Part shown: positions 6,065-29,029 of the stretch, in pieces
How the letters are laid out: the number at the start of each line of letters is the position of its first letter
How positions within the stretch are numbered: position 1 is the first letter of the stretch
DNA from: Vicinamibacterales bacterium
GTDB lineage: Bacteria > Acidobacteriota > Vicinamibacteria > Vicinamibacterales > UBA2999
Assembly (NCBI GenBank): GCA_040081715.1
Contig: JBEBFY010000008.1
Location: forward strand, 9,420-73,419
Reading direction: 5' to 3'
DNA: 64,000 nt
Notes under the pieces: model-generated
What the model saw: the letters and a program-made list of their open reading frames with translations, nothing else
Databases searched by the model: none
What the model was told of the DNA's origin: nothing
Made by a program: the position numbers and the translations under genes

Positions 6065-6514
6065 TCAGGTGGGCTCGATCCTCCAGCGTTCGATGTATCG
6101 GTCTTCCCGCCACTCGAGCGCCACCGCGCCATTGAGCGGGAAGGACACCGGCGACTGATCGGGATGTGCGCCCAACAGCAGTTGGAGAATTCTGGGCAGA
6201 CTCGGCATGTGACCGACCACCGCGATCTGGCGGTCCTCACCAATAAGCATGTCCCGGGTCCACTCAGGGGGGTCCGTCGGCTGCAGGCCCCGAACGGCCG
6301 TGATCGACGCAAACGGATTGCACACCCGCCAGAACACGTCCGCGGTCTGGCGTGCGCGATGCTTGCCGCTGTGCCAGATCACCTCCGGTTTCGCGCCCCT
6401 GGCGGCGGCCTCACGGGCCATGAGTTCAGCCTGAGCCCGCCCCCTGGCTGAGAGGGGTCGCATCGGGTCAACCCCTGGGGGCTCGGCCTCGGCGTGGTGC
6501 ACCAGCAGGACCAT
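6065..6514 (-). CDS. sixA: Phosphohistidine phosphatase SixA (histidine phosphatase superfamily)
   Basis: The N-terminus VLLVHHAEAE...LSARGRAQA and the later VVGHMPSL match the SixA RHG/H motifs. Confidence 0.8.
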   Translation of the reverse strand: MVLLVHHAEAEPPGVDPMRPLSARGRAQAELMAREAAARGAKPEVIWHSGKHRARQTADVFWRVCNPFASITAVRGLQPTDPPEWTRDMLIGEDRQIAVVGHMPSLPRILQLLLGAHPDQSPVSFPLNGAVALEWREDRYIERWRIEPT

Positions 6515-6549
6515 CCCGGTTATACTGGCACGTTCGAGCGCACGGCGAT

Positions 6550-6658
6550 TTCACCGACTTGATGGGCCGCGTTCCGGGATTCCCCGGCGCTCTCTTCTAT
6601 CTAAGTCGCGCACCGGCCCGCGACTGTCGCGGGCTTTTTTGTGAGTTGAAGGAGCAAC
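6550..6658 (+). promoter_or_regulatory. metK 5' leader with mutually exclusive helices ending in an intrinsic terminator (candidate riboswitch/attenuator, class unassigned)
   Basis: CGACTT (6555-6560) can pair with AAGTCG (6603-6608). GTCGCG (6605-6610) can pair with CGCGAC (6619-6624). GCCCGCGA (6616-6623) can pair with TCGCGGGC (6627-6634), followed by T6. The three helices overlap pairwise. Confidence 0.45.
6616..6641 (+). terminator. Rho-independent terminator 18 nt upstream of the metK start codon
   Basis: 8-bp GC-rich stem GCCCGCGA/TCGCGGGC with a 3-nt loop, followed by TTTTTT at 6635-6640. The upstream gene is divergent, so this can only act on a leader transcript. Confidence 0.7.
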
Positions 6659-7768
<1,110 letters not shown>

Positions 7769-19460: not shown

Positions 19461-22400
19461 GACGCAACCGCTCGTTCCGACCTCGGCACGCGGACGGCGA
19501 CCGTCGTCGGCCCACCCGCACGACTATCGAGCTCGAACTCCGCTCCGATTCTGCTCGCGCGCTCCTGCATTCCGACCACACCCACGTGACCCGAGGTTGC
19601 CGCCGCTGTCCGCACGTCTTCCGTAAAACCCGAGCCATCGTCCGTGATTCGCATCGCCACGAGGGTGGGATGGTAGTGCACCTCCACGGTAACGCGCCCG
19701 GCGCGTCCGTGCTGGATCGCATTGCGAATCGCTTCCTCGGCGATCATGTACAGCTCCCAGTCTTTCTCAACCGGCAGGGCCTGCGGCTCGCCGCTCACAC
19801 GTACGAGACAGCGGCCCACTTCGTGACCTGAGGCGGTGCGGCTGTATGCCTCGAGCGCCAACACCAGCGAGAACTCACCCTGCCGAGGCCGGAGGTCCCA
19901 GATCGCCTCGCGCGCAGTTCGCACATTCTCCTGCGCCTCACGGCGCAGATGCCGCAACTCACCGGTGAGACCGGCGCGCTCCGCTCCTGGTGAGCGCGCA
20001 AGGCCTTCAAGCTGGAGTGCCAACCCGGCAAGGCTCTGAAGCAACGTATCGTGCAGCTCGCGGCCAATGCGGCCCCGTTCGGCCAACACCAGGGCAAATC
20101 GTCGTCGCACCGCGCGTACGCGGAGTTGTGTGACACCGAGAACCGTCAGCAGCGAGGTCACCACACTCAGCGCCCTGAACCATGCCCGTTGGTAGAAGGG
20201 CGGCTCGACCGTGAACGCCAACGACGTCTCGGAATGTGACACGCCACTCAGGTGGGCTCGGACGCGAAAGCGGTAGGAGCCGGGGGGCAGCTGCGCGTAG
20301 AACACCTGACGGCGATCGCCGGCGCGTGTCCAGTTCGCATCAAATCCCTCCAGGAGGTACTCAAAGGACACCTTGCTTGCCGCCGACAGGCTGACCGCTC
20401 CATAGTCGATCTGGATGTTTCGAGCTCCAGACTCGAGGCGAAGGTCGGCAGGTAGTGGCCAGATCGGTCGGGCGTCGATAGCGAGCAGCTCGATGACCGC
20501 GCGCACCCTGACGGAGCGGGGCTCCATCAGTTCTGCCGGGTCGACCACGGCCACGCCGCTGACCGTCTGAAACCACAACTTCCCATCGCCTCCGCGGGTC
20601 GCGACGGGCGTTCCGTACCGTGTCGGCGATTCCAGGACACCATCAGATCGGTCATAGACCGTGTAGTTCACACGATACCGATGATCCGTGGCCGCGGCCT
20701 GAAGGTTCCGCCTGTCGAACCGGATGATTCCGGCAGCGACCATTGCCCACAGGCCGCCGTGACCGTCGTCTACCATGCCGCGCAGATCGGTTTCAGGCAG
20801 TCCATGGTGCTGGGTCACGCTGGTGAAACGTTCTCCGTTCCACCATGCCAGGCCGTTCCGCGTCAATGCCCAGACCGTGCCGTCACCGTCCTCCAGCAGG
20901 TCCGATATCTCCCCGCCTGGCAGCCCCTCGCGTGTACTGTAGGTCGAAAAGGAGCCGTGGTCGTACTTGGCAATGTGACCGTCACCGAAGCCGATCCAGA
21001 CACGCCCTTTCGCGTCACTCAGGACCTCGGAGCACTGCTGCCCACCGACGGCCTCGTGCTCGTCGAAGGAGGTAAGAAGCCCATCCTTCCAGCGGGACAG
21101 GGCGACTTCGCTGAACCGGCATAGCCACAGTCCGCCGTCAGGATCGGTTGCCATCGAGAACACGCGTCCAGGCGGCGGGTCCGGCAGGAGATGCACTCCC
21201 GTGAAGCGACCGTCGGCAAAGAGCCCCACGCTCGTATCGGTACCAACCCACAACCGGCCGGCTCGGTCACTATGCAAGGCCGTAATGTGGAGCCTTGGGA
21301 GCTTGTACTGCGCGTTTGCCTCCGGGCGTTCGCCGGGCCCGAATCGATCCAGCCCATCGCTGGTGCCAACCCATACCTGCCCGTCATTGGTCGTCTCCAG
21401 CGAGCGGACAGTGTTGTTCAACAGTCCGCTTCGACGTGTGACCATCGTCACGTCGTGCTCAAAGAACCGGCGGAGACCGCTCCGCGTCGCAACCCAGATG
21501 TTCCGCTCGGAATCCCCGACAATCGCCAGCACGACGTCGTTGACGTCATCGAGGTCACTGAACCGCTGCACGACTGGCCGTTCCGTCTCCGATGGCGGAA
21601 TGCGCAACAGCCCCTGCCCCATGGTCCCGACCCACACACCACCGAGCCGGTCGTGATGCAACGTTAGACCAATCGCGGAAATCCCGTGAGCGGGAACGTT
21701 CTCCAAGAGGGGCCTGGCGGCACGAGTCGGATCGGTGACCCACACCGCTCCTGACTCGTCCTCGCTGAAGCCTCGGGCCAGATCCGCAGAGAACCGCTCG
21801 AAACGGACCTGGTCCGCGCGGCGACGGTAGATGCCAGCCGTTGTCCCAACCCAGAGGGTTCCGGATCGATCTTCATGCAGGCTATACGCCGTCGTCGGCG
21901 GCAAACCCAGGGCTGGCGTGACCTGCTCCCATCGCCCTTCGCTGAATCGCGCCACTCCGCTGCGGCCGCCCATCCAGATCGCCCCATCCCGCGTCTCCAG
22001 CAGCGCGATGACAAAGCCGCCAGGCAGTCCGTCGTGGGTTGAGTAGTGAACGGCAGCCCTGCCGGTGATGAGGGAGACTCCACCACTCGTGTAGCCAACC
22101 CAGATATGCCCGGCCCGGGTACTGAGTAGCGACATCACATCGCGGGAAGGCAGCGGCGACTCACCACGAGAGCCCCATAGGACAAACCGTGAGCCGTCGA
22201 ACCGCACAAGGCCCGATGACGTGCCGAGCCACAGGTAGCCGTCCACATCTTGAGCGATGGCGTTAATCACGCCCGTCGGCAAACCGGGTGCGTTGCGATA
22301 GGACTCCGAGTACCAACGGTCGTTCGCGTTGAGCGCGAACGCCGGCCCGGCCGCAATCGCGAGAAGCAGGCAAATACGGATGGCGCAGCGAGCATTCGCG

Positions 22401-22546
22401 CGGATCGGTGAGGACAGTTGCGTATGGGACACCGGACTGGGGCACAAGGATGGCACCCAGCGCCGCGAGCACACAACGCCAACTTTCATTGCGGCCACAC
22501 ACCCTGCCGACCCCCAGTGGCACGGTGACGGGCTGAAGTCAACCAC
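19457..22546 (-). CDS. Sensor histidine kinase with periplasmic two-component-regulator propeller (Reg_prop) repeats and Y_Y_Y domain, HisKA_3/HATPase core
   Basis: Repeated G.LW.GT..GL motifs, one TM segment, an H-box (RIGRELHDTLLQSL) and an HATPase_c domain. The start is uncertain: an in-frame GTG at 22432 gives a cleaner signal peptide (SHTQLSSPIRANARCAIRICLLLAIAAGPAFA). Confidence 0.85.
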   Translation of the reverse strand: MVDFSPSPCHWGSAGCVAAMKVGVVCSRRWVPSLCPSPVSHTQLSSPIRANARCAIRICLLLAIAAGPAFALNANDRWYSESYRNAPGLPTGVINAIAQDVDGYLWLGTSSGLVRFDGSRFVLWGSRGESPLPSRDVMSLLSTRAGHIWVGYTSGGVSLITGRAAVHYSTHDGLPGGFVIALLETRDGAIWMGGRSGVARFSEGRWEQVTPALGLPPTTAYSLHEDRSGTLWVGTTAGIYRRRADQVRFERFSADLARGFSEDESGAVWVTDPTRAARPLLENVPAHGISAIGLTLHHDRLGGVWVGTMGQGLLRIPPSETERPVVQRFSDLDDVNDVVLAIVGDSERNIWVATRSGLRRFFEHDVTMVTRRSGLLNNTVRSLETTNDGQVWVGTSDGLDRFGPGERPEANAQYKLPRLHITALHSDRAGRLWVGTDTSVGLFADGRFTGVHLLPDPPPGRVFSMATDPDGGLWLCRFSEVALSRWKDGLLTSFDEHEAVGGQQCSEVLSDAKGRVWIGFGDGHIAKYDHGSFSTYSTREGLPGGEISDLLEDGDGTVWALTRNGLAWWNGERFTSVTQHHGLPETDLRGMVDDGHGGLWAMVAAGIIRFDRRNLQAAATDHRYRVNYTVYDRSDGVLESPTRYGTPVATRGGDGKLWFQTVSGVAVVDPAELMEPRSVRVRAVIELLAIDARPIWPLPADLRLESGARNIQIDYGAVSLSAASKVSFEYLLEGFDANWTRAGDRRQVFYAQLPPGSYRFRVRAHLSGVSHSETSLAFTVEPPFYQRAWFRALSVVTSLLTVLGVTQLRVRAVRRRFALVLAERGRIGRELHDTLLQSLAGLALQLEGLARSPGAERAGLTGELRHLRREAQENVRTAREAIWDLRPRQGEFSLVLALEAYSRTASGHEVGRCLVRVSGEPQALPVEKDWELYMIAEEAIRNAIQHGRAGRVTVEVHYHPTLVAMRITDDGSGFTEDVRTAAATSGHVGVVGMQERASRIGAEFELDSRAGGPTTVAVRVPRSERAVAS

Positions 22547-22590
22547 GCCCTTGCGCCGGACTCAGCCTCTGAAGTACCCTGACCTCACTC

Positions 22591-22665
22591 ATGGGTTCCA
22601 CGCTCCACCACGCACACGTCCATCACCACGGCCATCGGGCCGTCCGGCCGGGCCGCGTGCGCTGA
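22591..22665 (+). CDS. Candidate his operon leader peptide (24 codons, 7 His)
   Basis: ATG 22591 ... TGA 22663-22665 encodes MGSTLHHAHVHHHGHRAVRPGRVR. It lies between the divergent kinase gene and hisI and is followed by a terminator. No clear Shine-Dalgarno is present. Confidence 0.5.
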   Translation: MGSTLHHAHVHHHGHRAVRPGRVR

Positions 22666-22703
22666 GCGTCTTGTAGCAACAGACACCCAGAGCCCCGAAG
22701 ATG

Positions 22704-22732
22704 CCCCGCCGGAACTCAGGCGGGGTTTTTTG
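22704..22732 (+). terminator. Rho-independent terminator in the his leader
   Basis: CCCCGCC (22704-22710), an 8-nt loop, GGCGGGG (22719-22725), then TTTTTT (22726-22731). It lies 73 nt upstream of the hisI ATG. Confidence 0.7.
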
Positions 22733-22804
22733 TTGTACGGGCTGACGTGGCCCGGCCCCCGGCTGGCGGACGGAGCACCACGAGCGACGAGAGAGAGCAG
22801 ATCA

Positions 22805-23137
22805 ATGGCGATGGATTTCACGAAACTTGACGGCCTGATCCCTGCCGTCGTGCAGGATTACCTCAGCAACGAGGTACTCATGGTCGGCTTCATGAACGCG
22901 GAAGCCTGGGAGATCACGAAGAGAACCGGCTACGTCACCTTCTACAGCCGCACGCGCAACACGCTGTGGACCAAGGGGGAAACCTCGGGCAACCGGCTCG
23001 CGGTGAAGGAGGTCCTCATCGACTGCGACGAGGACACCGTGCTGGTGAAAGCGGCGCGTCAGGGCGACGGCAACGTGTGCCACACGGGTGAGCGGACCTG
23101 CTTCTTCGTGAAGGCCGACGGGGTGACCATCCCATGA
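22805..23137 (+). CDS. hisI: Phosphoribosyl-AMP cyclohydrolase (monofunctional HisI)
   Basis: ATG at 22805 gives [18 protein letters not shown]...[18 protein letters not shown]...CDEDTVL...[12 protein letters not shown]. There is no HisE domain. Confidence 0.92.
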
Positions 23138-24021
23138 CACTCAAACTGGGCATCCCGAAGGGGTCGCTGCAGGACGCGACCGTGCAGCTCTTCGCACGGG
23201 CGGGCTTCAATATCCACGTCAGCTCACGTTCCTACTTCCCCACCATCGACGACCCGGAGATCGAATGCATGCTCATCCGGGCGCAGGAGATGGCGCGCTA
23301 CGTCTCGGACGGCGTGCTGGACGCAGGCCTGACCGGCCTCGATTGGATCGCGGAGCACGAGGCTGGCGACGGCACCACCGGCGTCATCGAGCCGATCGCG
23401 GATCTCGTGTACGCGAAGCAGAGCTTCGGCAAGGTCCGGTGGGTGCTGGCCGTGCCCGAGGACTCTCCCTACCAGACCGCCAAGGATCTCGAAGGCAAGA
23501 CGATCGCCACCGAACTGGTGCGGGCCACGAAGGCCTACTTCGCGCGCCAGGGCGTCAATGTGAAGACGGAGTTTTCCTGGGGCGCCACGGAGGTGAAGCC
23601 GCCACGGCTGGCCGACGCCATCGTGGAGGTCACCGAGACTGGCTCGTCGCTGCGGGCCAATCGCCTCCGCATCATCGACACGCTGATGGAGTCCAACACG
23701 CAGCTCATCGCCAACAAGACGGCGCTAGCGGACGCGTGGAAGAAGACCAAGCTGCAGAACCTCGCGCTGCTGCTGAACGCCGCCATCGCCGCCCAGGGCC
23801 GCGTCGGCCTGATGCTGAACGTCGAGAAAGCCAGGCTCGACTCGATTCTGGCCATCCTGCCGGCGCTGCAGCGGCCGACGATCTCGTCGCTCAGTGACGA
23901 GGCGTGGGTGGCGGTCAACACCATCATCGAAGAGAAGACGGTGCGAGACCTGATGCCGAAGCTCAAGGCGGCCGGGGCGCAGGGGATCGTCGAGTATCCG
24001 CTCAACAAGATCGTGCTCTGA
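23134..24021 (+). CDS. hisG: ATP phosphoribosyltransferase, long form with C-terminal regulatory domain
   Basis: [13 protein letters not shown]...[10 protein letters not shown]...ETGSSLRAN, 295 aa. The start overlaps the hisI stop (ATGA). Confidence 0.92.
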
Positions 24022-25295
24022 TGATCCGCATCATCGACGCTGAGGATCGGGAAGGCGTCGCGGCGCTGCTCTCGGCCGCGCGCGTACGCGATGCCGCCAC
24101 GGACCGCCGTGTGGCGCGCATCGTGGCCGACGTCCGGAGCGGTGGCGACGCGGCCCTGCTGCGGTACGCGCGCAAGCTCGACAACCTGGAGGGCGGCCTC
24201 GAGATTCCGCACAGCGACATCCGGGCACAGGCCGCGCAGGTGCCTGCGGCCGTGCGCGCCGCGATCCGCAGCGCGGCGAAGCACATCCGGGCCGTCGCAC
24301 GGAAGCAGGTCCCGAAAGGCTGGCTCCTGCAGGTCGCGCCCGGCGTGACCGTCGAGCAACGCGTAACTCCGCTCGACCGCGTCGGCTGTTATGTGCCCGG
24401 CGGCCGGTACCCGCTCCCCTCGTCCCTGTTGATGACGGCCATCCCCGCGCGCGCGGCCGGCGTGCAGGAGATCGTCGTGGTCTGTCCGCGCCCGGAACCC
24501 GTGGTGCTGGCCGCCGCGCTCGAGGCCGGGGCCACGCGCGTGTTCCGCATCGGCGGCGCGCACGCCGTGGCTGCCATGGCCTACGGTACGGAATCGGTGC
24601 CCCGGGTGGACAAGATCGTGGGCCCGGGCAACCGGTTCGTCGCCTCGGCCAAGGCGCTCATCGCCACCGACTGCGGCATCGACTTCTACGCCGGGCCGAC
24701 CGAGATCCTGATCGTGGCGGCACGCGGGCCGGCGGAGTGGATTGCGGCCGACCTCATCGCGCAGGCCGAGCACGATCCGGACGCGCGTGCGGTGCTCGTG
24801 ACCCCGAATCGGGCGCTGGCCGATCAGGTAGTGGCAGCCGTGATCGCCCAGGCGCCACAGGACGGTCCTGCCCGGATGGCGCTTGCGCGCCATGGCGGCG
24901 TGGTGGTGACGCAGACGATGGATCAGGCGATGGCACTGGCCAACGACGCGGCCCCCGAGCACCTTGTGCTGGAACGCGAATCGCTGCTCAGCCAGGTCCG
25001 CTGCGCGGGGTCGATCTTCATCGGACCGTGGACGGCGCAGGTGGCGGGCGACTACGCCATCGGGTCGAATCACGTGCTGCCCACGGCCGGCGCCTCGCGC
25101 GTGCGCGGCGGCCTGTCCGCGGCCGACTTCGTGCGGCAGGTGACTGTGCAGCGCCTCTCGGAGGCCGGGCTGCGGGCCATCGGGCCGACGGTCACCACGC
25201 TGGCGCGCGCGGAGGGTCTTGAGGGACACGCCGCCTCCATCGATGTACGGACGGGCATCAACCAGAGCGCGGCGGGCAGGCGGAGAAAGCGATGA
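24021..25295 (+). CDS. hisD: Histidinol dehydrogenase
   Basis: In-frame ATG at 24021 overlaps the hisG stop. Family motifs are present (YVPGGRYPLPSSLLM, AQAEHDPDA, GDYAIGSNHVLPT). Confidence 0.93.
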   Translation: MIRIIDAEDREGVAALLSAARVRDAATDRRVARIVADVRSGGDAALLRYARKLDNLEGGLEIPHSDIRAQAAQVPAAVRAAIRSAAKHIRAVARKQVPKGWLLQVAPGVTVEQRVTPLDRVGCYVPGGRYPLPSSLLMTAIPARAAGVQEIVVVCPRPEPVVLAAALEAGATRVFRIGGAHAVAAMAYGTESVPRVDKIVGPGNRFVASAKALIATDCGIDFYAGPTEILIVAARGPAEWIAADLIAQAEHDPDARAVLVTPNRALADQVVAAVIAQAPQDGPARMALARHGGVVVTQTMDQAMALANDAAPEHLVLERESLLSQVRCAGSIFIGPWTAQVAGDYAIGSNHVLPTAGASRVRGGLSAADFVRQVTVQRLSEAGLRAIGPTVTTLARAEGLEGHAASIDVRTGINQSAAGRRRKR

Positions 25296-26368
25296 CGGTG
25301 CAGGGCATCCCGAGCCCGGGTGACGGCCTTCGACTTCACCTGAACGAGAACACGGGCGGATGCTCCGAGCGCGTGATGGACGCCATCCGCGCCATGCGCG
25401 CCACCGACATCTCGGCCTACCCCGATTACCGGCGCGACGTGGCCGCGGTGGCTCGGCACTTCGGCGTGGACCCGGACTGGCTGATCCTCACCAACGGACT
25501 CGACGAAGGCATCTTTCTGGCCTCCATCGGGACCTTTGGCCGAGCACACGATGCGTCGCTGGAAGCCATCGTGCCCGTGCCCGCGTTCGACCCGTACCTG
25601 ACGGCCACGGCGGCCGTGGACGCGCGCACCATCCGCGTGCCGCCGGGATCGGACTTCGCGTTTCCGGCAGACGCGGTCGTCGCCGCCATCACGCCGAAGA
25701 CGCGCCTGATCTTCCTGAACACGCCCAACAACCCGACAGGGCAGGCGATTCCTCACGGCGTGCTGCGCCGGATCGCCGGGGCGGCTCCGCAGGCGACGGT
25801 TGTGGTGGATGAGGCCTACGTGGAGTTCGCGGACCCGGAGCCGGGCCAGCGGAGCGCAAGCTTTCTGGACGAGCTGCCCGTGCACCCCAACGTGGTCGTG
25901 GGCCGCACGTTCTCGAAGGCCTACGGGCTGGCCGGCATGCGCATCGGCGTGCTCATCGGCCATCCGGATCGCCTGGAGCCGGTTCGGGCCGTGACGCCGG
26001 TCTTCAACATGAACACCGTGGCCATGACGGCGATGCACGCGGCGCTGGCCGACACGGCGTTTCTGCCGCGCTACGTGGCCGACGTGCACACGTCGCGCGA
26101 ACGGCTCTACGCCGCCTGCGGGCGGCTTGGCCTCGAGTACTGGCCGAGCGCCGCCAACTTCGTGCTGATGCGCGTGGGACCGCGGGCCGGTGAGGTCGTC
26201 GCGCACCTGTCCGCCAGCGGCGTGCACGTGCGGGACCGCTCGAAGGATCCGTACAGCCCCGGCTGCATCCGGGTCACCGCCGGCATCACCAGCCACACTG
26301 ACCGCGCCATTGCGGCGCTTGAGGCGGTGGTGGCCACGGGGCTGACCAGCGCGAGGAGGAACCCATGA
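25292..26368 (+). CDS. hisC: Histidinol-phosphate aminotransferase
   Basis: Class II aminotransferase motifs ([31 protein letters not shown]). The start overlaps the hisD stop. Confidence 0.92.
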
Positions 26369-26967
26369 GCGTGGACGCGCCCCGCGAGGCCCGATTCGAC
26401 CGGCGGACCACGGAAACCCAGATCAAGGGCCGGTTCGTGGTGGACGGCGAGGGGAAGTACCAGGTGCGGACCGGCATCCGCTTCCTCGACCACATGCTCG
26501 AGTTGTTCACCCGGCACGGCGGGTTCGACCTGCAGTTGAAGGCCACCGGCGATCTGGACGTCGATCAACACCACACCGTGGAAGACATCGGCATCGTCCT
26601 CGGCGAAGCCGTGGCAGCCGCACTGGGAAACAAGAAGGGCATCAACCGCGCCGGCTACTTCGTGATGCCGATGGACGAAACGCTGGCCGTGGCGGCGGTG
26701 GACCTGAGCGGACGGCCGCACTCCGTCGTGAAGCTGAAGCTGGCCGTCGAGAAGGTGGGCGACCTGCAGGCCGAGCTCGTGCACGATTTCTTCGACGGGT
26801 TCGCCATGGGCGCCCGCGCCAACGTGCACGCCGTCGTCCTGTACGGACGGTCGAGCCACCATCACATCGAGGCCGTCTTCAAGGCCTTTGCCCGCGCCCT
26901 GCGCGTGGCCTGCGCGAAGGACGCGCGGCTCGCGAAGATGCTGCCCAGCACGAAGGGACTGCTGTGA
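26365..26967 (+). CDS. hisB: Imidazoleglycerol-phosphate dehydratase
   Basis: RRTTETQI...[20 protein letters not shown]...[14 protein letters not shown]...[19 protein letters not shown]. Confidence 0.95.
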
Positions 26968-27578
26968 TTGCACTGGTCGACTACAAGGCTGGCAACCTGA
27001 CGTCGGTCCGCAAGGCCCTCACGGCCCTGGGCGCGTCGTTCTTCACGCCTGCCACCGCCGCTGAGCTGGAGGGTGTGACAGGCGTGATCGTGCCTGGCGT
27101 CGGCCACTTCACCTCGACGGCCAACCTCGACGAGCCCTGGCGCCGTGCCATCGAGGGCCGCGTGCTGGCTGGGGCGCCGCTGCTCGGGATCTGCGTGGGC
27201 ATGCAGTGGCTCTTCGAGGGCAGCGCGGAGTCGCCGGAGTGCCCGGGGCTGGGCGTGCTGCCAGGGCGCTGTGAGCGCCTTGCGGGCAACGCGGCCGTCG
27301 GCGTCAAGGTGCCCCATGTCGGCTGGAACGCGCTCGTGCCGCCACCGGGTACGAGGTCGGTCCTCCTGCAGGGGGTTGCGCCGGGTTCGCAGGTCTACTT
27401 CACGCACTCGTACGCCCCGCCCGTCACCAACGACTGCGTGGCGGCCACCACGCACGGTGCGGAAACCTTCGGAGCAGCCGTGGAGCGCGGCCATGTGTTC
27501 GGCGTGCAGTTCCACCCGGAGAAGTCCTCGGACGTAGGTCTGCGGATTCTCGGTAACTTTCTGGAGGCGTGCCAATAG
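26964..27578 (+). CDS. hisH: Imidazole glycerol phosphate synthase, glutamine amidotransferase subunit
   Basis: [13 protein letters not shown]...PGVGHF...[13 protein letters not shown]...[10 protein letters not shown] (class I GATase triad). Confidence 0.93.
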
Positions 27579-28333
27579 TGCTCTCCAAACGCGTGATCGC
27601 CTGCATGGATGTCCGGGAGGGACAGGTCGTCAAGGGCGTGCAGTTCCAGGACCTGCGCCACGCCGGCGACCCGGCCGAACTCGCCCGCCGCTACAACGTG
27701 GAAGGTATCGACGAGGTCGTGGTGCTCGACATCACGGCCACGCTTGAAGGCCGGCGGACGCTCGCCGACACCGTGCATGCCGTGGCGGCGGAGATCTTCC
27801 TGCCGCTCGCAGTCGGCGGTGGCATTCGTTCCGAGGCCGACGCGGCCACGGTGATCGACGCTGGAGCAGACAAGGTGAGCCTGAATACGGCCGCCCTGCG
27901 CCAGCCGGAGCTCATCACGACCCTCGCCAACCGGTACGGCAGCCAGGCCGTGATTGTGGCCATCGACGCCAAGCGGATCGACGACCGGTTTGCCGTTTAC
28001 GTGCGCAGCGGACAGACCGACTCCGCGCGCGACGCCGTGGAATGGGCACGCGAGGCGGAGTCCCGCGGGGCCGGCGAGATCCTGCTGACGTCGATGGACC
28101 GCGACGGCACACGCGCCGGCTTCGACTGCGCCCTCACCGCCGCCGTCTCGAGCGCCGTGAACATTCCCGTGATTGCCTCAGGTGGCGCGGGTGGCTTTGA
28201 CCACTTCGTGGATGTGTTCACCGAGGGCCGGGCGGACGCCGCGCTGGCGGCCTCGATCTTTCACTACGCCGAGTCGAGCGTGCACGACCTGAAGGTGCAC
28301 CTGCGCGACCGCGGCATTCCCGTTCGCCTCTAG
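27578..28333 (+). CDS. hisF: Imidazole glycerol phosphate synthase, cyclase subunit
   Basis: GTG at 27578 gives the canonical (M)[11 protein letters not shown] start with GGAGG 10 nt upstream; GTG at 27569 is an alternative. Motifs include [11 protein letters not shown] and ASGGAG. Confidence 0.93.
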
Positions 28334-28351
28334 TTCCGGGCTCCTCACGAC

Positions 28352-29029
28352 ATGCTGATTCCGTCCATCGACCTGCAGAACGGCCACATCGTCCAGCTCG
28401 TCCAGGGTGAGAAGCTTGCCATCCAGACGGACGACATGGAGCTCTGGATCTCGCGGTTTGCGCGGTTTCCGAAGGTGCAGCTCATCGACCTCGATGCGGC
28501 CATGGGCAAGGCCAGCAACCTCGTGCTCGCCAAGTCGATCTGCGCGCGGCTGCCGTGCCGCATGGGCGGCGGCATCCGGACGGTGGATCGGGCACTCGAG
28601 GTGCTGCAGGCCGGGGCGCACGCCGTCATCGTCAGCTCGTCGCTCTTCAAGGACGGCGCGGTGGACCTGCGTTTTGCCGAAGCGCTCGCGGCCGCGGTCG
28701 GACCCGAGCGCGTGATCGCCGCGGTAGACAGCAAGGGTGGCCAGGTGGTGATCCATGGGTGGAAGACGCCCCTGCCGATCACAGCGGTCGAAGCCGTCAA
28801 GGCCCTGGAGCCCTACTGCGACGAGTTTCTCTACACGCACGTGGACAACGAGGGCCTGATGCAGGGCACCGACATGGACGCCATCATGGCCGTGCACCGC
28901 GCCACGTCGCGCCGCCTCACGGCCGCCGGTGGCATCACGACCCGTGCCGAAATCGACGCCCTCCATGCGGAGGGCATCGACGCCGTGGTCGGCATGGCGA
29001 TCTACACAGGCCATCTCGCCATCGAATAG
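28352..29029 (+). CDS. hisA: HisA-type ProFAR isomerase (short, diverged form)
   Basis: MLIPSIDLQNGHIVQLVQG...LIDLDAAMG...GGGIR..., a 225-aa TIM barrel and the last gene of the operon. Its last 60 nt are duplicated at 33229-33290. Confidence 0.8.
   Translation: MLIPSIDLQNGHIVQLVQGEKLAIQTDDMELWISRFARFPKVQLIDLDAAMGKASNLVLAKSICARLPCRMGGGIRTVDRALEVLQAGAHAVIVSSSLFKDGAVDLRFAEALAAAVGPERVIAAVDSKGGQVVIHGWKTPLPITAVEAVKALEPYCDEFLYTHVDNEGLMQGTDMDAIMAVHRATSRRLTAAGGITTRAEIDALHAEGIDAVVGMAIYTGHLAIE

Follow-up and report, generated by a model that had tools for sequence, protein, structure and literature searches.

A probable ribosome-mediated attenuator of the histidine operon in Vicinamibacterales and a second clade of Acidobacteriota

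The eight-gene histidine operon of a Vicinamibacterales bacterium is preceded by an element that is very probably a ribosome-mediated transcription attenuator, a conclusion reached on computational grounds. The element lies within the 64-kb stretch of DNA that was analysed (hereafter the window), and the hallmarks of leader-peptide attenuators all appear to be represented in it: a short ORF rich in His codons, a terminator on the same strand before the first structural gene, and an antiterminator that would exclude this terminator. The mechanism is classical, and its lineage-specific version is new, being both outside Rfam and not found in the literature searched. A previous sequence-only reading of this DNA had proposed attenuation of the hisL type; all of the parts that it would require were found to be present and conserved, and the likeness to hisL is one of mechanism only. 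The features of the locus, all on the forward strand, are the following.

22551..22556, + strand: -35-like hexamer TTGCGC (TTGACA in most relatives), part of a putative promoter.
22575..22580, + strand: -10-like hexamer TACCCT, 18 nt after the -35 hexamer and 10 nt before the leader ATG, part of the putative promoter.
22591..22665, + strand: leader ORF, from ATG 22591-22593 to TGA 22663-22665, 24 codons plus stop, MGSTLHHAHVHHHGHRAVRPGRVR.
22606..22635, + strand: regulatory His-codon block, 7 His within codons 6-15, the proposed ribosome stall site.
22611..22621, + strand: region 1, CGCACACGUCC, part of the His-codon block, pairing with 22651-22661 in the MFE fold.
22628..22643, + strand: local hairpin ACGGCC-AUCG-GGCCGU (arms 22628-33 and 22638-43), just after the His run.
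22644..22653, + strand: region 2, the predicted antiterminator 5' strand, CCGGCCGGGC, within the last codons of the leader ORF.
22651..22661, + strand: 3' partner of region 1, GGCCGCGUGCG, overlapping region 2 by 3 nt and ending 1 nt before the stop codon.
22703..22712, + strand: region 3, the terminator 5' arm, GCCCCGCC(GG), common to the predicted antiterminator and the terminator.
22703..22731, + strand: intrinsic terminator called by the terminator scan, stem 22703-22710/22719-22726, loop 22711-22718, T-run 22726-22731.
22805..29029, + strand: hisI-hisG-hisD-hisC-hisB-hisH-hisF-hisA (NCBIfam matches; hisI ATG at 22805), the proposed regulated operon.

Direct reading of the leader ORF places His at codons 6, 7, 9, 11, 12, 13 and 15, codons 6-15 being CAC CAC gca CAC gtc CAT CAC CAC ggc CAT. 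The 24-codon ORF with seven His had been described in the sequence-only reading, together with gaps of 38 nt from the stop codon to the stem and of 73 nt from the T-run to the hisI ATG; every position of the ORF was verified against the sequence, and both distances were right. Among the 400-nt regions upstream of hisI, 75 of 78 contain a stop-free 10-codon window with at least five His, compared with 14 of the 1395 controls, which were taken from the same loci on both strands and in all frames. Judging from these counts, the presence of a His-rich leader ORF is far beyond chance. The relatives keep an ORF that runs from ATG/GTG to stop over 20-30 codons and includes 4-12 His, and its peptides have little in common across loci beyond the His run (e.g., MFTVHHHGLHHFHHGHRPAGAA, MTLASHRHHHHHHHHHHHTVAGRRSCG and MSFVHHAHRSHHHRSQNGTAGVCA), His being the sole conserved residue type. 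Insertions and deletions inside the His block of the aligned leaders are multiples of three. Among His codons, CAT accounts for 42% in the leaders versus 22% in the his structural genes (odds ratio 2.6), for which the coding regions defined by tblastn served as the control. This excess fits selection for slower decoding and could also reflect constraints of RNA structure.

The terminator core in the window consists of CCCCGCC (22704-22710), an 8-nt loop, GGCGGGG (22719-22725) and TTTTTT (22726-22731), with an energy of -17.9 kcal/mol. The sequence agrees with the hairpin and T6 previously placed at 22704-22731, the stem called by the scan spanning 22703-22726. Across the related loci, where terminators were called by a lenient fold-based finder, a hairpin of at most -10 kcal/mol followed by a T-run is located 20-57 nt past the stop codon in 74 of 79 cases, whereas in three loci (L030, L041 and L058) the leader is kept and the T-run is absent. 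The terminator helix is paired in 97% of alignment cells and shows a CG/GC exchange at one pair. The His-rich short ORF and the intrinsic terminator co-occur in 74/79 Vicinamibacterales loci, which is the outcome of the check on conservation of the codon run and terminator that had been suggested along with the initial proposal.

Downstream of the terminator, NCBIfam assigns hisI, hisG, hisD, hisC, hisB, hisH, hisF and hisA, as expected from the eight-gene his operon of the sequence-only reading, and the divergent upstream neighbour that it had noted in the window is a sensor histidine kinase encoded on the minus strand. All 79 relatives in which hisI was matched have it immediately before hisG. 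The T-run ends at most 20 nt from hisI in 31 of 74 loci, so that in these loci hisI is expressible by read-through only. This arrangement bears on the possibility that the short ORF is a separate gene for a small His-rich (e.g., metal-binding) peptide, the hairpin being its own terminator and the his operon having its own downstream promoter. Such a gene would be expected to be kept intact and to have a promoter, as this ORF does, at least putatively, and the 73 nt between the T-run and hisI in the window could in principle contain another promoter. However, the His count alone is conserved while the rest of the peptide varies freely, and the conserved 3' portion of the ORF occurs in three different reading frames. 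Moreover, the element is always joined to hisI, its upstream neighbour being variable (the divergent kinase or a co-oriented DUF1648 gene), the loci with at most 20 nt after the T-run (12 nt in locus L163) leave no room for a promoter, and the promoter scan of the window found no promoter-like site past the terminator. A separate peptide gene is thus very improbable, and the ORF is better read as part of the attenuator.

An alignment of the leaders anchored at the start codon revealed a conserved pattern of TTGACA, an 18-nt spacer (17 nt in eight loci) and TAnnCT; in the subgroup to which the window belongs, the -35 box is TTGCGC instead of TTGACA. The pattern TTGNNN-N17-18-TANNNT-N6-13-start was found at 67 of 74 leaders versus 1.1% of all ATG triplets in the same loci, and within the 64-kb window the promoter-plus-start pattern is unique to the leader locus. 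A stock promoter scan of the window called no promoter at the leader, because TAnnCT and TTGCGC deviate too much from the E. coli consensus. In the 74 leaders, the distance from the end of the -10 box to the start codon is 9-10 nt (range 7-12). Positions 7-8 after the -10 box are pyrimidine-rich in the relatives, where the ATG is mostly preceded by T-C, and this Y(-1)R(+1) context would favour initiation at the A of the leader ATG.

The lack of a clear Shine-Dalgarno sequence, raised at the outset as a caveat, holds true: there is none before the leader ATG in the window, and an SD-like tetramer occurs in only 3 of 74 leaders. From the position of the promoter we infer that the transcript is leaderless or nearly so, with a 5' UTR of 0-4 nt; a 5' UTR of this size is too short for a Shine-Dalgarno sequence and would point to SD-less initiation of the leaderless type. 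The gap between TANNNT and start codon is about 6 nt in typical leaderless genes (PMC3160421), as compared with 9-10 nt for the leader TANNNT of 67/74 loci. The mode of initiation of the leader ORF is therefore uncertain, with no SD and a -10 spacing longer than that of strictly leaderless genes. The conserved promoter, with its -10 box about 10 nt from the ATG, would account for the missing SD, and the probable leaderless-type start is a mildly unusual feature.

The absence of a Shine-Dalgarno sequence would also suit an untranslated leader RNA whose CAY-rich tract and alternative hairpins are recognised by a factor acting in trans (for example, tRNA-His in a T-box-like contact, or an RNA-binding regulatory protein), which chooses between terminator and antiterminator. 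Histidine T-boxes do control his genes in other phyla (PMC9413887), and region 2 is strongly conserved at the RNA level, as described below. However, the His triplets always lie in one frame, this frame opens with an ATG/GTG whose spacing from the -10 box is fixed and closes with a stop codon 9-27 nt past region 2, indels of the His block come in multiples of three, and the CAC/CAT wobble variation is typical of codons. In addition, the segment 22300-22900 has no match to the T-box or any other meaningful Rfam match at E up to 10, and no T-box was found window-wide at gathering thresholds. We therefore consider a trans-acting reader quite unlikely and retain translation of the leader ORF as the preferred reading.

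To identify the alternative RNA structures, every diagonal of the MAFFT alignment of 74 leaders (alignment A1) was scanned in an unbiased manner. Only four meaningful helices emerged, namely, the terminator, the local hairpin, 1:2 and 2:3; with RNAalifold, the MAFFT alignment yielded the terminator only and none of the alternative helices. Folding in search of alternative pairings had been recommended in the sequence-only reading, which had been unable to establish the antiterminator by eye. The 1:2, 2:3 and terminator pairings were all recovered, and the antiterminator can now be placed at 22644-22653 with 22703-22712. In the 1:2 helix, a CACGCGC block in the His codons pairs with GCGCGTG at the end of the ORF (columns 45-51 with 110-116 of alignment A1; 77% of cells paired), and four of its six pairs change on both sides. 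The local hairpin, a possible pause or spacer hairpin, has the strongest covariation of the element, with CG/UA/GC exchanges in four of five pairs. Regions 2 and 3 of the window pair at 9 of 10 positions with one C.C mismatch, and in alignment A1 the antiterminator comprises columns 96-102 (consensus CCGGCGG) with 202-208 and is 83% paired, this register outscoring slides of 1-3 nt. The antiterminator and terminator pairings are predicted to be mutually exclusive.

Over the two complete conformations, 86.6% of cells in alignment A1 are paired for termination and 82% for antitermination, compared with 30-54% and 22-56%, respectively, in slid registers, and none of 500 shuffles matched the observed pairing or covariation score. 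Region 2 also fits its own terminator arm better than those of other loci (z = -4.3 on double-centred duplex energies, 0/5000 permutations), the per-locus duplex z-scores being modest (mean -1.2). The core of region 2 is read in all three frames of the ORF across genomes (46/25/3), indicating that it is selected as RNA rather than as peptide. Covariation is strong in the local hairpin, moderate in the 1:2 helix as well as at one terminator pair, and weak in the antiterminator: within Vicinamibacterales, the latter helix is mostly invariant, with double changes in two of seven pairs and a central pair that forms in only 54% of sequences.

In the layout of the leader, the median distance to the start of region 2 is 41 nt from the first His codon and 12 nt from the last. 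Region 2 is followed at a median distance of 12 nt (range 9-27) by the stop codon, and a further 38 nt (median) separate the latter from the terminator core. Partition functions were computed for transcripts that stop short of the terminator 3' arm, the ribosome being represented by a footprint of 28 nt kept single-stranded. The probability that the terminator 5' arm pairs to the ORF is 0.80 for a ribosome placed at the first or middle His codon, 0.58 when it is placed at the last one and 0.32 when it is at the stop codon, as compared with 0.43 without a ribosome. Antiterminator pairing is higher with a stalled ribosome than with one at the stop codon in 72 of 74 loci, and higher than without a ribosome in 67 of 74; the latter difference indicates that the His-codon region competes for region 2 in the manner of a classical region 1. 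In the window's own sequence, antiterminator pairing is already 0.74 without a ribosome, and the 1:2 competitor looks weak there. In these equilibrium calculations of what is a kinetic process, the position of the ribosome decides the predicted fold, as is characteristic of leader-peptide attenuators.

These observations can be combined into the following mechanism. A sigma-70-type promoter would start the transcript at the leader AUG or no more than about 4 nt from it, and the leader ORF would be translated without a Shine-Dalgarno sequence. When His-tRNA is plentiful, the ribosome would pass the His codons and region 2 and reach the stop codon at 22663-65; with the ribosome over region 2, the terminator (22703-22731) would form and the transcript would end before hisI. 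When His-tRNA is scarce, the ribosome would stall in the His block (22606-22635) and occupy region 1, leaving region 2 free to pair with 22703-22712 once this arm is made; with the antiterminator formed, there would be no terminator and RNA polymerase would enter hisIGDCBHFA. If the leader is not translated, region 1 would pair with the end of the ORF and compete with the antiterminator. The analysis shows the sequence elements, their conservation and the predicted pairings, and the start site, translation of the ORF and response to histidine are what we infer from them.

Two departures from this scheme would keep the coupling to translation: the attenuator could sense general translation capacity or another signal, or it could act mainly via Rho or masking of the RBS. 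The His run is interrupted (HHAHVHHHGH), many relatives have Arg-rich stretches, and, with regard to Rho or RBS masking, the T-run is missing from the three loci mentioned above. Nevertheless, His is the only enriched residue and histidine is the product of the operon, 74/79 loci have a strong intrinsic terminator of the canonical form, and the hisI start region is outside the conserved pairings. Both variants together have little probability, and attenuation by histidine supply through the intrinsic terminator is the reading followed below.

The distribution of the element was analysed starting from a genome scan with the HisG protein of the window, which listed 80 species-representative loci with HisG 74-96% identical. 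Nearly all of them are labelled Vicinamibacterales or Acidobacteriota, in keeping with the guess of an Acidobacteriota-like genome made from the gene content; these loci belong to Vicinamibacterales, a group within the phylum Acidobacteriota. A covariance search had likewise been suggested, and the covariance model R1, built from the 74 aligned leaders, matches 79 of the 80 related loci, with exactly one strong copy upstream of hisI in each of these Vicinamibacterales genomes. The copies include two cut by contig ends and one shifted 996 nt upstream by an insertion, and the single miss is a 1.4-kb contig. The match in the window spans 22591-22734 with 95 bits.

As the matches listed in a HisG homologue search with the protein of the window were all at least 85% identical, distant taxa were reached through a representative of the 50%-identity HisG cluster (P0125) in a metagenome scan. 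Among the 80 metagenome loci listed, 18 have hisI immediately upstream of hisG and form a second clade, in which HisG is 64-68% identical to that of the window. A His leader (e.g., MKLLRAHHSHHHHHVKPCPRRCG or MNSRAHRHHRHHGHTPRPMRCA) was found in 16 of these 18 loci, each with TTGACA-N17-TAATTT-N10-ATG and a strong terminator. R1, in the building of which the second clade was not used, matches 16/18 loci at 26-46 bits, versus one weak match in 24 loci without the hisI-hisG arrangement. No His leader was found in the 60 metagenome loci that lack hisI before hisG, where hisG may not be the first gene. The named relatives of second-clade HisG are Candidatus Acidiferrales and Acidobacteriia of the class Terriglobia. 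In a 4.56-Mb NCBI contig of Candidatus Acidiferrales (L163), the element is present with its T-run ending 12 nt before hisI, and the upstream neighbour differs from that in the window, being a co-oriented DUF1648 gene.

The antiterminator partners have changed together between Vicinamibacterales and the second clade: in Acidiferrales, the terminator arm is GGCCCGCUGGCGC and region 2 is GCGGCGGUGUGGCU (GCGGCGGUGUGGCUAG with the stop codon included), with duplex energies of -13.5 to -20.2 kcal/mol. The two clades were analysed apart, the antiterminator register of the second clade being shifted by 6 columns in alignment A2. Masked-ribosome folding of the second clade follows the same trend, with 0.75 for the stalled ribosome and 0.40 at the stop codon. 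On the strength of these matches, the predicted element is common to at least two classes of Acidobacteriota.

The comparative data also dispose of a chance origin, in which a GC-rich intergenic region would happen to combine CAC/CAT triplets with a hairpin. The folding z-score of the single element in the window is only -2.1, and Rfam yields nothing but terminator-driven noise, both of which would fit such a coincidence. The His-run counts (75/78 versus 14/1395) and the R1 matches in 79/80 loci and in 16/18 independent loci of the second clade refute it, leaving it next to no probability. A more far-reaching reading is that the element represents an ancient Acidobacteriota RNA family, spanning at least Vicinamibacteria and Terriglobia, whose sensor is a leader peptide made from a leaderless or nearly leaderless transcript, with promoter, 5'-terminal AUG, His codons, covarying pause-type hairpin, antiterminator and terminator packed into one compact unit of about 180 nt. 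We put this forward tentatively and give it somewhat less than even credence; if true, transcription and translation would have to be tightly coupled in Acidobacteriota, and initiation without an SD would have to be efficient.

Acidobacteriota are among the most abundant soil bacteria, and to our knowledge almost nothing is known about their gene regulation. The element would provide a concrete cis-regulator in this phylum, with a clear signal and output and open to testing. R1 could become the starting point of a new RNA family, and a small ORF that recurs without annotation gains one. To Proteobacteria, Firmicutes and Actinobacteria, a further phylum would be added in the range of histidine leader-peptide attenuation. 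Confirmation of the start site would mean that attenuation driven by SD-less promoter-proximal initiation also exists outside Actinobacteria. The attenuation mechanism itself is classical, and the general understanding of attenuation is unchanged.

Membership in the Rfam His_leader family, which the sequence-only reading had suggested examining, was not borne out: cmscan of 22300-22900 gave no match to RF00514 at E up to 10, and the whole 64-kb window has no match to any Rfam family at gathering thresholds. Matches to NsiR1, ncS037 and anti-hemB at the locus (E above 1) were driven by the terminator alone. As the sequence-only reading had surmised, no description of a his attenuator in Acidobacteriota was found in the literature searched.

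The E. coli hisL leader has a Shine-Dalgarno sequence and seven consecutive His codons followed by Pro-Asp-stop. In contrast, the His run of the present element is interrupted, its ORF goes on for 9-12 codons through the antiterminator strand, and its start codon has no Shine-Dalgarno sequence and is separated from the -10 box by about 10 nt; the first gene is hisI here and hisG in the case of hisL. The two have in common a short His-codon ORF, alternative hairpins and an intrinsic terminator before the first his gene, with no detectable homology of sequence or structure between the present element and hisL (RF00514). For hisL, ribosome stalling at the His codons was proposed to favour the antiterminator (PMC9413887, PMC1183508).

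Lineage-specific His leaders have been predicted in gamma-proteobacteria. Such histidine leader attenuators were also predicted in the Firmicutes, namely, in the Bacillus cereus group, in Peptostreptococcaceae/Lutispora and in Erysipelotrichales (PMC9413887, PMC2965389). The Firmicutes leaders resemble the present element in having His-rich ORFs and terminator/antiterminator hairpins upstream of his operons, in lacking an RF00514 match and in being described by comparative genomics only; they belong to a different phylum, are unrelated in sequence and contain 3-5 consecutive His codons (PMC9413887). These two papers describe nothing about promoter-proximal, SD-less starts. His leaders have been searched for in Actinobacteria as well, to judge from the reference list of PMC4833913.

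The closest parallel for the SD-less, promoter-proximal start is with the mycobacterial leaderless polycysteine short ORFs, which are Cys-responsive attenuators (bioRxiv 10.1101/834739; PMC4633059). Both combine an amino-acid-rich ORF at the 5' end of the transcript, absence of a Shine-Dalgarno sequence and biosynthetic genes downstream, in the one case for Cys in Actinobacteria and in the other for His in Acidobacteriota. Leaderless status was mapped experimentally in mycobacteria and is deduced here from the promoter, with 9-10 nt from the -10 box to the ATG compared with the typical 6 nt; unlike the polycysteine ORFs, the present element has a canonical intrinsic terminator as its output. 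Finally, the E. coli trpL leader (RF00513, also without a match at the locus) differs in its Trp codons and SD-led ORF and has no homology to the element, whereas it follows the same four-region logic of 1:2, 2:3 and 3:4 pairings, in which a ribosome at the stop codon occludes region 2, and in both leaders the hairpin after the regulatory codons could be a pause signal.

Within the His leader, a small hairpin lies immediately downstream of the His run, ahead of the genes of the his operon:

22628-22643: small hairpin immediately 3' of the His run (columns 72-76/90-94 of A1, the MAFFT alignment of leaders)
22805-29029: his operon, in the order hisI-hisG-D-C-B-H-F-A

This hairpin belongs to neither the antiterminator nor the terminator, yet nowhere else in the element are compensatory changes as clear: in A1, four of the hairpin's five pairs have substitutions of the type CG to UA to GC. 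The hisL and trpL leaders contain a transcription pause hairpin (PMC9291695), and by analogy the hairpin following the His run is plausibly its counterpart here.

The first gene of the operon is a monofunctional hisI, which encodes a protein of 110 aa that lacks the HisE domain; neither hisE nor a histidinol-phosphatase gene is obvious within the operon. The leader and the hisI-first gene order occur together in both Acidobacteriota clades examined, the Vicinamibacterales and Candidatus Acidiferrales (class Terriglobia).

Among the related loci collected in the genome scan with HisG, two carry repeat-rich insertions between the His-leader terminator and hisI (L053:2692-3672 and L020:1-456), so that the leader of L053 is located 996 nt upstream of hisI. 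The repeats are GC-rich tandem units of ~60 nt each (e.g., ...CGCGGAATACGCGGACTACAC...), and the insertions may be MITE-like or REP-like elements. Three further loci, from related genomes, have His leaders without a T-run:

L030:3445-3580
L041:116-251
L058:3442-3541

In these loci, the promoter and the leader (MSFTTPLAHRHHHHRHPGGPAMLRALTTN) are retained and the hairpin CGCCGGAUCUGGCGG is present, whereas the T-run after it is absent. The three genomes may have adopted another output mechanism or lost the regulation.

Several relatives bear labels at odds with a clearly acidobacterial locus, namely the record titles of L001, L033, L039 and L044 and the name of P0271, a protein among the HisG relatives. 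The labels of these MAG records read 'uncultured Bifidobacteriaceae', 'Acidimicrobiia', 'cyanobacterium' or 'Baltobacteraceae', and mis-binning or mislabelling of the assemblies is the probable cause.

Elsewhere in the window, a second leader precedes metK:

6494-6642, + strand: metK leader, ~150 nt, directly 5' of metK
6616-6641, + strand: strong intrinsic terminator (GGCCCGCGACTGTCGCGGGC followed by T6), directly before metK
6659-7768, + strand: metK (TIGR01034)

The Rfam search identified no SAM riboswitch or other family at threshold for this leader; Trp_leader matches it at a sub-threshold 25 bits, and R1, the covariance model built from 74 aligned His leaders, scores 18 bits there. The metK leader may represent an undescribed attenuator or riboswitch.
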